64,000 bases of DNA from the sequence record PP047754. One strand, 5' to 3'. Below the pieces are notes generated by a model. The model was not told where the DNA came from and made no database searches. It worked only from the letters and a program-made list of their open reading frames with translations. This document shows positions 62,888 through 64,000 of this stretch, in pieces (position 1 is the stretch's first letter; every line of letters begins with the position of its first letter). Source of the DNA: Escherichia phage KEP4. A program made the translations under genes and the position numbers.

Positions 62888-64000
62888 ATGGAGCCGTTTT
62901 AGGGAGTCGAACCCAAATGCTTGGCCAGCGCTGACCTTACATCCCATCTGACTTAGGCAACCCACCTCTGCCTACTCAGGAGCTTATCCCCTTTGGACAG
63001 TCAGATATAACGGCGTTGGGATTGGAGGAAGGACTCGAACCTTCTCATGTACGCTCCTGATTTCTCAGAAGTAGTCTGCTCCCATCGACCTATTAAGTAC
63101 ACGCTCCGCTCATTGTCGACGGGAGATTATTAATCACACCCTCCCGTCTATTTTAGTGCGCCGAATTTGGTGATGAGGAATCGGAAGACCTCACTGGTGT
63201 ATGGCTATTAAGCTACTGCCAGGAACGTGTTATCATTAGCGATTATTTTTGTGGTCAGTTTCTAAAAACCCGCAAAGTCACGCACAACGAAAACGAAAAC
63301 CTGTTTGAGTCCTAAACCTACCTGTCTTGGTCTCACATCGCTATGAGTGGCCAGGACTCAAACAGCTTGCCGTTCAGTGAGTTAACTATACTTTGTAACC
63401 CGTTATTGATAAAACCTTTTATTTTTGTTGGCGAGGGTGCGGAATCGAACCACACTTCTGAGCGCTACCCCGTGTCATCAATGCACCACCTCACCATCGA
63501 TTTGCCGGAACTTACGCATCCGGCCTCGTCCTGTCGGTGTTCTTCTGAATCCGGGAAGATCAGCAGGAACTATGAATCAAGTTAATTCAACCAACAGGAA
63601 TCCTCTTGTTGCCCTTTGACGCAACATTATGAACCCTCTATGAAGACTCATAATGTTGTCGGCGTGATGGAGATTAGCGCCCCCGACCTCCCCTTATATG
63701 TTGGTGTCGACTTGCCAACGGGGTGCTCTCGTTTTTCTGAGCTAATCACGCTACAACAGGGAGTTTCGTTCTCCGACGGTCAAGTGCGTCCACTGACACC
63801 AGCGAGGTGGCTATTACGCCTCTATTCACACAAGCCCCTGAGACTAGGGGTTAACTGGTTTTGGGCTGCAAACCCGACTCCCACTGTGTTATTTCCCTCA
63901 TGTTTAATACTTTACCGCAGCCCAGCTAATTTGAAAAGTCCTCTCCCCTTTGAGCTACACTGCCCACAGCAGTGCGGACGAACCTTCACTCAAAACCGGA

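Follow-up and report, generated by a model that had tools for sequence, protein, structure and literature searches.

tRNA-like modules around a tmRNA-like gene in the tRNA region of Escherichia phage KEP4

Some RNAs are shaped like a transfer RNA (tRNA) and do not decode; in mascRNA of MALAT1 and in the t-elements of plant mitochondria, recognition of this shape by RNase P or RNase Z sets the ends of the neighbouring RNAs. Here, we analysed two tRNA-like modules, modules 1 and 2, and the transfer-messenger RNA (tmRNA)-like gene that lies between them, in a 64,000-nucleotide (nt) stretch of DNA from Escherichia phage KEP4 (record PP047754), referred to below as the window. Related systems have been described in phages and bacteria. 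In T4, two small RNAs of unknown function are made from the tRNA region (PMC3014915; PMC9697503). The tmRNA of mycobacteriophage DS6A consists of the tRNA-like domain only, and a similar RNA inhibits tmRNA, possibly by titrating SmpB; in the exhaustive tmRNA survey that lists it, the phage cases are mycobacteriophages, Bacillus phage G and this domain-only RNA (PMC4131195). In Mycobacterium smegmatis, the RNA YrlA has a 7-base-pair (bp) acceptor stem that makes it a substrate of RNase P and of CCA addition, and YrlA is also found in phages (PMC4201824).

The modules are a further variant of this class of non-decoding tRNA mimics. By their setting they can be likened to the T4 RNAs (RNAC and RNAD, the species 1 and 2 RNAs), which are also small non-coding RNAs of a phage tRNA region, but the set in Ackermannviridae is larger and polymorphic. 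Like the DS6A RNA, they are phage tRNA-like RNAs with little beyond the acceptor/T-arm domain; in contrast to it, modules 1 and 2 lack the G3:U70 pair and are recognised neither by tmRNA models nor by ARAGORN. They resemble YrlA in having a T arm, a D arm and an acceptor-like stem and in not decoding, whereas they do not match its Rfam model, RF02553, and no Ro60-binding module or neighbouring rsr gene was identified at the modules. Finally, mascRNA and the t-elements are eukaryotic or organellar and the modules belong to a phage; RF01684 gives no match to them, and it is by analogy that cleavage of the modules may be proposed. Few non-decoding tRNA mimics are known from bacteria and phages; the modules add to their number, and are candidates either for molecular decoys or for a punctuation of RNA that depends on RNase P.

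The final 4 kilobases (kb) of the window are 100% identical to Salmonella phage SFP10 (Kuttervirus, Ackermannviridae). The annotation of the region was taken from the SFP10 record, and SFP10 stands for the window in the comparisons of variants; positions are those of the window (Table 1) and all modules lie on the minus strand. From the end of the tRNA array (61695) to the next coding sequence (~63955), the SFP10 record holds 2.26 kb without an annotated gene; modules 1 and 2 both lie in this stretch, upstream of the tRNA genes. We hold, with moderate confidence, that the two modules are conserved, tRNA-derived structured RNAs that do not decode and are handled by tRNA-processing enzymes. Both keep the coaxial helix of acceptor and T arm and the T loop, with a D-like arm retained as well in module 2. 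In place of the anticodon arm, module 2 has a stub and module 1 has other hairpins.

Firstly, we compared module 2 between phages. An earlier note on this DNA, made from the sequence of the window alone, had described its T arm, a 7-bp acceptor pairing and a 34-nt body. All three are present, and an extra C (C63437) between the T stem and the acceptor strand pairs with G63455 and brings the T stem to 6 bp. The note was also right to take the modules for tRNA-like structures and not for decoding tRNAs, as neither ARAGORN nor the Rfam tRNA model calls them; module 2 is no minihelix with an unstructured body but forms a four-arm cloverleaf: a 7-bp acceptor, TG, a D-like stem of 3-4 bp with an ATTGGTG loop, the stub, AGAAG and the 6-bp T stem. 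The alignment took in 8 distinct variants, drawn from genomes of Kuttervirus, Agtrevirus and Taipeivirus and from contigs of IMG/VR. Over 20 pairs, 95.6% of the cells are paired, and the acceptor, stub and T helices are paired at 100%. Both sides have changed at three pairs (G-C became A-U at 6:67 and in the T stem, and U-A became C-G in the D stem) and wobble-compatible changes are seen at five. The acceptor and T helices of the modules are maintained by compensatory or wobble-compatible changes across three phage genera. Among 500 shuffles a single one was as good, and no slid register was. All three double changes come from the T765 lineage; hence, the independent covariation events are few. 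The 6-nt loop of the stub varies (GTAGCG, GTGGCG, GCAGCG or GCAACG). In the record of SeKF_64, which has GG in the D loop, module 2 is labelled as a 67-nt tRNA-Ala.

Secondly, we analysed the bounds of module 1. Its T arm, 7-nt 3′ strand, discriminator and encoded CCA all read on the minus strand where they had first been placed, and the 7-bp stem capped by GAAA is present in its body. The 5′ strand had to be revised. The proximal ATGGGAG chosen in the earlier note does pair with CTCCAAT at six of seven positions (the mismatch is G.A at 3:70), but the conserved partner is GAGCGGAG, further upstream. Module 1 occurs in two types, the SFP10 type, which is nearly invariant, and the type of phages bering and K5lambda5, which has a different body. 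In the latter, the T arm is kept with a compensatory change (A-U to G-C, giving GGAGG/CCTCC), the encoded CCA, the 3′ CTCCAATCCCA and the upstream GAGCGGAG are retained, and the helix at the equivalent place is built from other complementary strands (GGTGC/GCACC versus CGTGTAC/GTACATG), while ATGGGAG has no counterpart. In minimum-energy folds with 100 nt of context, GAGCGGAG closes the acceptor in both types. Since ATGGGAG is missing from one type and the folds close with GAGCGGAG, module 1 is probably about 95 nt long. A tRNA origin is supported by its 3′ half, which resembles an atypical tRNA-Ser(tga) of phage Ag3 (score 19.5 versus a shuffle maximum of 13). This 80-nt gene, an ARAGORN call (locus L005, 2131-2210, minus strand) that has its T arm and 3′ end in common with module 1, has tRNA-Sec (24.5 bits) as its only listed Rfam match and no listed match to the tRNA family RF00005; it reads as another atypical tRNA-like gene.

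Thirdly, we assessed the modules against known RNA classes. ARAGORN called neither module, and RF00005 (family threshold, 29 bits) gave no match at E ≤ 10 in searches of 4.5 kb and of 641 nt; the four real tRNAs of the array score 48.7-75.8 bits. In the lax 641-nt search, tRNA-Sec was the only tRNA match, to module 1 at 16.3 bits (E = 2.4). In a separate search, the Ag3 copy of module 2 matched the same model at 19.4 bits (E = 0.55). The tmRNA models (threshold, 47 bits) match the bare T arms alone, at 8-10 bits, and ARAGORN in its -m tmRNA mode found E. coli ssrA, the positive control, and nothing in 38 phage loci or in the window. The canonical anticodon arm, a 5-bp stem with a 7-nt loop, is absent: the corresponding hairpin has 3 bp and 6 nt in module 2, and module 1 has its 7-bp stem and GAAA loop. 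With no model match and no such arm, we rejected canonical or intron-containing tRNAs. What both modules do have is a 7-bp acceptor stacked on a 5-bp T stem with a TTCRANY loop, from which module 2 departs by an additional G-C pair or bulge, and module 1 by one or two acceptor mismatches, depending on the 5′ strand. The alanine identity set of G3:U70 with A73 is not found: module 1 has G3.A70 and C73, and module 2 has U3.G70 or C3-G70 with A73. The structural prerequisites of RNase P and of the CCA-adding enzyme are there, namely the 7-bp acceptor, the T arm, a U at position -1 and, in module 1, the encoded CCA. This U precedes module 2, the extended module 1 and a further module of the region, module 5; it likewise precedes three canonical tRNAs.

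The modules are also set apart by their location. The T-loop core GGTTCRANTCC occurs eight times in the 64 kb, always on the minus strand between 60135 and 63451, for an expectation of 0.26, and none of 100 shuffles reached eight. Four of these occurrences belong to detectable tRNAs and four to non-canonical modules, including modules 1 and 2. When we scanned for an acceptor combined with a T arm, good G+C-rich examples were confined to the 3.4-kb stretch of tRNAs and modules. All modules lie on the strand of the tRNA genes, with a spacing like that of tRNA operons. Modules 1 and 2 belong to a set of at least five putative tRNA-like modules that punctuates the 2.26-kb minus-strand stretch. The context given in the earlier note was incomplete: at least three further tRNA-like modules had been missed, and so had the gene between modules 1 and 2.

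This gene, which resembles tmRNA and has no tRNA-like domain, is the most notable content of the interval and outweighs the modules. Rfam tmRNA matches in the region were weak and repeated, and led us to a tag reading frame; none reached the gathering score (tmRNA_permuted gave 20.6 bits in the window and, in Ag3, 29.8 bits with E = 4.6e-4). In SFP10, AAAAATAATC is followed by GCT AAT GAT AAC ACG TTC CTG GCA GTA GCT TAA TAG. The frame, 10 codons and a stop with no start codon, is found in all 14 distinct sequences, among which codons 1, 2, 3 and 10 vary at the third position only; other tags include ANDDVVLMAA, ANDNVFLAVA, ANDDLMLMAA, ANDDQFLAVA, ANDNAYLAVA and ANEEMYLAVA. The frame reads as one under selection at the peptide level, with an A-rich run before it and its stop codon inside a small helix. 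Two pseudoknots covary in the alignments (CCGA/TCGG, CCAG/CTGG and CCAA/TTGG in pseudoknot A; CGCAC/GTGTG, CGTAC/GTATG and CGCAT/ATGTG in pseudoknot B). The A-rich run, the start-less AND... tag, the stop codon in a helix and the pseudoknots are features of tmRNA, and the phage tags resemble the E. coli tag ANDENYALAA. In contrast to tmRNA, also in its permuted form, the gene lacks an acceptor and a T arm, no 5′ acceptor strand lies downstream of the modules, and its scores stay below threshold. Module 1 starts 6 nt after the last pseudoknot hairpin.

Homologs of the tmRNA-like gene are present in 665 phage records from several unrelated groups, among them Ackermannviridae, Felixounavirus (inside the tRNA array), Drexlerviridae, an N4-like phage, a Vibrio phage and a lambdoid phage (downstream of Q). 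Of 5,426 complete E. coli genomes, 690 have homologs as well, at 150 chromosomal places and 590 times on plasmids; the examples fetched were one prophage copy downstream of Q and one P1-like plasmid. No RNA gene is annotated among the matches listed, the underlying features being 'none' or hypothetical proteins. Sigma-70-like promoters stand before the element in other phages too (TTGACA and TATAGT in a Felixounavirus, TTGACA and TAGATT in a Vibrio phage). An acceptor stem or T arm of its own was found in none of the Ackermannviridae, Felixounavirus, Drexlerviridae, lambdoid, P1-like, N4-like and Vibrio-phage copies. In most contexts fetched, the element adjoins tRNA genes; modules bearing a T arm adjoin it in an N4-like phage, and lie inside a hairpin described below, hairpin A, in a lambdoid phage and in phages PLL1 and bering. 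In CS01 and in E. coli prophages, it has no tRNA-like neighbour. The exhaustive tmRNA survey, with a tRNA-like domain as its requirement, missed this gene, and our literature search on Ackermannviridae tmRNA and phage tmRNA-like RNAs returned only citations of ARAGORN, the phrase 'phage-encoded tmRNA' giving no result. Should the gene be functional, phages would interfere with ribosome rescue or with the tagging of proteins by a route so far undescribed.

How would the modules work? The anatomy of the sequences, their conservation and covariation and the cassette polymorphism are observations; we infer their transcription, their processing and any activity in trans. The region would be transcribed with, or like, the tRNA operon, and the minihelix would be recognised by the tRNA-processing enzymes of the host: cleavage by RNase P would generate the 5′ end, and the 3′ end would be completed by exonuclease trimming and by the CCA-adding enzyme. 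The outcome would be stable tRNA-like RNAs of ~70-100 nt and, as a by-product, fixed ends of the neighbouring RNAs, for example that of the tmRNA-like RNA, whose last pseudoknot hairpin lies 6 nt before module 1. Any functional link between the modules and the tmRNA-like RNA is hypothetical.

Several observations weigh against tRNA-derived RNAs handled by processing enzymes. The earlier note had proposed covariance-model searches and had counted the failure of every tRNA-like model, together with a lack of discrete transcripts, as speaking against it; on the side of the models, those of tRNA, tmRNA, mascRNA and YrlA score neither module. Folded as single sequences, modules 1 and 2 have unremarkable energies (z = -0.81 and -1.29, respectively). 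The conserved acceptor of module 1 carries two central mismatches, G.A and C.A, and SFP10 is the only variant of module 2 to have GA, not GG, in its D loop. The promoter-like site of the tmRNA-like gene is found downstream of module 2, which therefore need not be part of the transcript of that gene. Lastly, the modules are dispensable, as Menlow lacks modules 1 and 2, Ag3 lacks modules 1 and 3, and IME250 has an open reading frame (ORF) at the place of module 2; a role in processing the tmRNA-like RNA therefore cannot be essential.

This polymorphism came from a scan of 20 related loci, in which the modules behave as cassettes. Slot A, just upstream of a conserved promoter-like site, holds module 2, module 2′ (an unrelated 150-nt tRNA-like module with the acceptor TGCGGTG/CACCGCA, a D arm and an 85-nt insert), the ORF of IME250 or, in Menlow, nothing; PMBT18 has a chimera of 2 and 2′. 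Slot B holds module 1, module 3 or both, nothing in Ag3, and only the last 13 nt of module 3 in Menlow. HNH homing endonuclease genes are inserted at differing points in relatives (loci L002, L003, L012 and L020, and Se-G, NC_049496, in which the HNH gene lies inside the tmRNA-like element), and these insertions probably drive the turnover of the cassettes.

Such a locus could also contain mere remnants, that is, tRNA pseudogenes left to decay after duplication, deletion or recombination in a fast-turnover array and with no function of their own. Presence/absence polymorphism, the PMBT18 chimera, the nearby homing endonuclease genes, the fragment of module 3 in Menlow, the likeness of the module 1 3′ half to another atypical tRNA in Ag3 and the private D-loop mutation of SFP10 in module 2 all fit this explanation, which survives best among the alternatives and which we nevertheless regard as unlikely. 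Neutral decay is expected to break stems about as often as it preserves them, whereas module 2 is kept in three genera with each variable stem position still paired and three double changes, and module 1 has had its body replaced and yet retains the helix, the T arm and the CCA.

A second explanation places the modules in trans-translation, either as free-standing imitations of the tRNA-like domain of tmRNA, titrating SmpB, EF-Tu or a synthetase, or as the missing head of the headless tmRNA-like RNA. It is precisely the acceptor/T-arm part that is missing from the gene that they flank; module 1 is built like a minimal tRNA-like domain (acceptor, a loop for the D stem, a capped helix, T arm and CCA); T-arm modules stand beside the element in an N4-like and in a lambdoid phage as well; and the inhibition of tmRNA by a domain-only RNA like that of DS6A is a precedent (PMC4131195). 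We consider this improbable, however. G3:U70 is lacking, with G.A and C73 in module 1 and U.G or C-G in module 2; the tmRNA models match nothing past the bare T arm; in CS01 and in E. coli prophages the element stands alone, with no tRNA-like neighbour, and modules 1 and 2 are missing from Menlow; and a search for SmpB homologs found none among the phages named as Ackermannviridae. We also rejected a duplex of module 2 with the tmRNA-like RNA: a match of 10 of 11 positions to the GUGUGAUUAAU loop, found by hand, weakens in T765, and the duplexfold optimum does not surpass shuffles in SFP10 (0.75) and Ag3 (0.52), is marginal against them in T765 (0.04) and lies at a different site in each of the three phages. 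Module 2 was likewise rejected as the acceptor piece of a permuted two-piece tmRNA; both acceptor strands are inside the module and there is no GGCGAGG-like 5′ strand downstream. The modules as the missing head were tested and could not be supported; the T-arm modules beside the element in other phages, and its place next to tRNA genes in most contexts fetched, keep this idea alive at a low probability. A complete split system, with a headless tmRNA body, common among enterobacterial phages and prophages, and separate tRNA-like heads (modules 1, 2, 3 and others), seems to us a shade less probable again; if it existed, then together with host factors it would either put a phage-specific degron on stalled host proteins as a new tag or switch off ribosome rescue in the host.

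Phage tRNAs reportedly counter tRNA-cleaving defences, and the modules, located within a phage tRNA region, could be decoys that sequester host factors recognising the acceptor, the T arm or the elbow, for example toxins or nucleases that target tRNA. Their presence or absence at the strain level and the replacement of alleles in near-identical genomes are typical of accessory loci in an arms race. We give this explanation the same small chance as the split system: it has no direct evidence and no linked protein gene, and we know of no tRNA-targeting defence described as neutralised by an anticodon-less decoy. Finally, DNA-level sites for recombination, homing or attachment are very improbable: cassette boundaries do recur at the same short sequences, such as CCG(C/T)CGAC 5′ of slot B, and endonuclease genes are nearby, but the changes are G.U-compatible and the T loop and the CCA are strand-specific, all on the tRNA strand, which argues for constraint on RNA and not on duplex DNA.

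Phage tRNA regions are usually annotated for canonical tRNAs only; the 2.26 kb analysed here is packed with conserved, covarying RNA structures (Table 1). Module 3 begins 2 nt past the CCA of module 1. Its T arm, TTGGG-TTCGACT-CCCTA, has a U.U mismatch, and among 17 distinct sequences (some phages being represented by more than one locus), variation is seen at eight pairs, in each case on a single side and never on both. In MDA2066, its discriminator becomes A and the CCA is kept. A reading of CGGCTCC-A (62896-62889) as a tmRNA 3′ end with U70 and A73, paired with GAGGCCG (~63528), was rejected because GAGGCCG sits in a conserved hairpin of its own, and because MDA2066 changes U70 to A yet keeps AAACGGC-N-CCA, and Ag3 lacks the sequence. 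Module 4 is present in every locus matching its anchor motif (14 distinct sequences); five pairs have changed on both sides, and its D loop carries insertions in some relatives. Module 5 has the T arm TCGGG-TTCGATT-CCCGA and 46 pairs, of which nine have changed on both sides. It occurs in 235 records, nearly all of which bear the name of Salmonella, Klebsiella, Escherichia or Shigella; the matches listed are phages of Kuttervirus, Agtrevirus and Taipeivirus. The 11-mer GTGCATGCCGA that module 5 shares with E. coli ssrA does not exceed shuffles (score 22 versus a shuffle maximum of 30), and homology between the two was rejected.

Hairpin A follows module 3 directly. In PLL1 (locus L015) and bering (L016), its stem encloses a T arm, GCGGG-TTCGAGT-CCCGT, giving a tRNA-like shape with a closed, extended acceptor. 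Stems related to hairpin A flank the tmRNA-like element in lambdoid, Vibrio and P1-like elements (L009, L021 and L023). They stand upstream or downstream of it according to the phage group, as if the order of domains were permuted.

Table 1. Features of the region and their positions in the window
Feature	Position	Strand	Details or basis
Module 2, tRNA-like cloverleaf	63429-63495	minus	Sequence and 8 variants
Module 2 acceptor	63495-63489 with 63436-63430	minus	GGTGAGG with CCTCGCC
Module 2 D-like hairpin	63486-63472	minus	
Module 2 stub hairpin	63471-63460	minus	3 bp, 6-nt loop; in place of anticodon arm
Module 2 T arm	63454-63438	minus	TGTGG-TTCGATT-CCGCA; 6-bp stem spans 63455-63437
Module 2 A73	63429	minus	No encoded CCA; ACA continues the sequence
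Module 1, extended	63017-63111	minus	~95 nt (probable bounds); sequence and divergent bering/K5lambda5 type
Module 1 conserved 5′ strand	63111-63104	minus	GAGCGGAG
Module 1 helix	within 63111-63017	minus	CGTGTAC/GTACATG
Module 1 proximal 5′ strand	63085-63079	minus	ATGGGAG; choice of the earlier note
Module 1 hairpin	63071-63054	minus	CTTCTGA-GAAA-TCAGGAG; 7 pairs, one U.G
Module 1 T arm	63044-63028	minus	GAAGG-TTCGAGT-CCTTC
Module 1 3′ strand	63027-63021	minus	CTCCAAT, then C 63020; extended 3′ strand CTCCAATC
Module 1 encoded CCA	63019-63017	minus	
tmRNA-like gene without tRNA-like domain	~63112-63412	minus	Rfam tmRNA matches and tag conservation
Promoter-like site	63412-63385	minus	TTATCA-16-TATAGT, then hairpin and A-rich AAAAATAATC
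Tag ORF	63240-63208	minus	GCT..GCT TAA (ANDNTFLAVA), then TAG 63207-63205
Pseudoknot A	63194-63173	minus	Hairpin; loop CCGA 63184-63181 with TCGG 63164-63161
Pseudoknot B	63160-63156 with 63139-63135	minus	CGCAC with GTGTG in loop of hairpin 63148-63118
Module 3	62889-63014	minus	126 nt; acceptor GCCGTTA/AAACGGC; T73; CCA 62891-62889
Module 4	63661-63751	minus	Acceptor GCGTGAT/ATCACGC; TA; D arm GCTC..GAGC; nested stems; atypical T-arm analogue
Module 5	60120-60274	minus	~155 nt; 3′ end of tRNA array; acceptor GAGTGTG/CGCACTC; two internal domains
Hairpin A	62761-62888	minus	17-bp closing stem ATCTTTGAGGGCA/TGCCCTCAAAGAT; branched interior
Conventional tRNA array	60285-61695	minus	ARAGORN, Rfam and SFP10 annotation
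Atypical tRNA	60285-60370	minus	22-nt anticodon-loop insert; Rfam tRNA, 48.7 bits
tRNA-Ser	60374-60462	minus	ARAGORN/Rfam
tRNA-Asn	61131-61206	minus	ARAGORN/Rfam
tRNA-Met	61620-61695	minus	ARAGORN/Rfam

In the array itself, ARAGORN calls tRNA-Ser, tRNA-Asn and tRNA-Met alone, and Rfam adds the atypical tRNA. In the latter, which is labelled as a tRNA-OTHER pseudogene in SFP10 and is conserved in Marshall, 22 nt replace nine central positions of the anticodon arm. In Taipeivirus relatives, the same ORF-poor region contains matches to Rfam STnc100, a gammaproteobacterial small RNA, above the gathering score (L006, 2193-2407, and L004, 2075-2288, both on the minus strand). A partial match lies at L005 (2588-2697), and no match was found in the window. 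Two long hairpins (62000-62111 and 62476-62608) have perfect arms of 18-20 bp. Their Ag3 copies differ at paired positions (for example, CAACTTTGATGG/CCATCAAAGTTG versus CAACTCTGATGG/CCATCAGAGTTG), which suggests that these hairpins are conserved RNA structures and not chance repeats.

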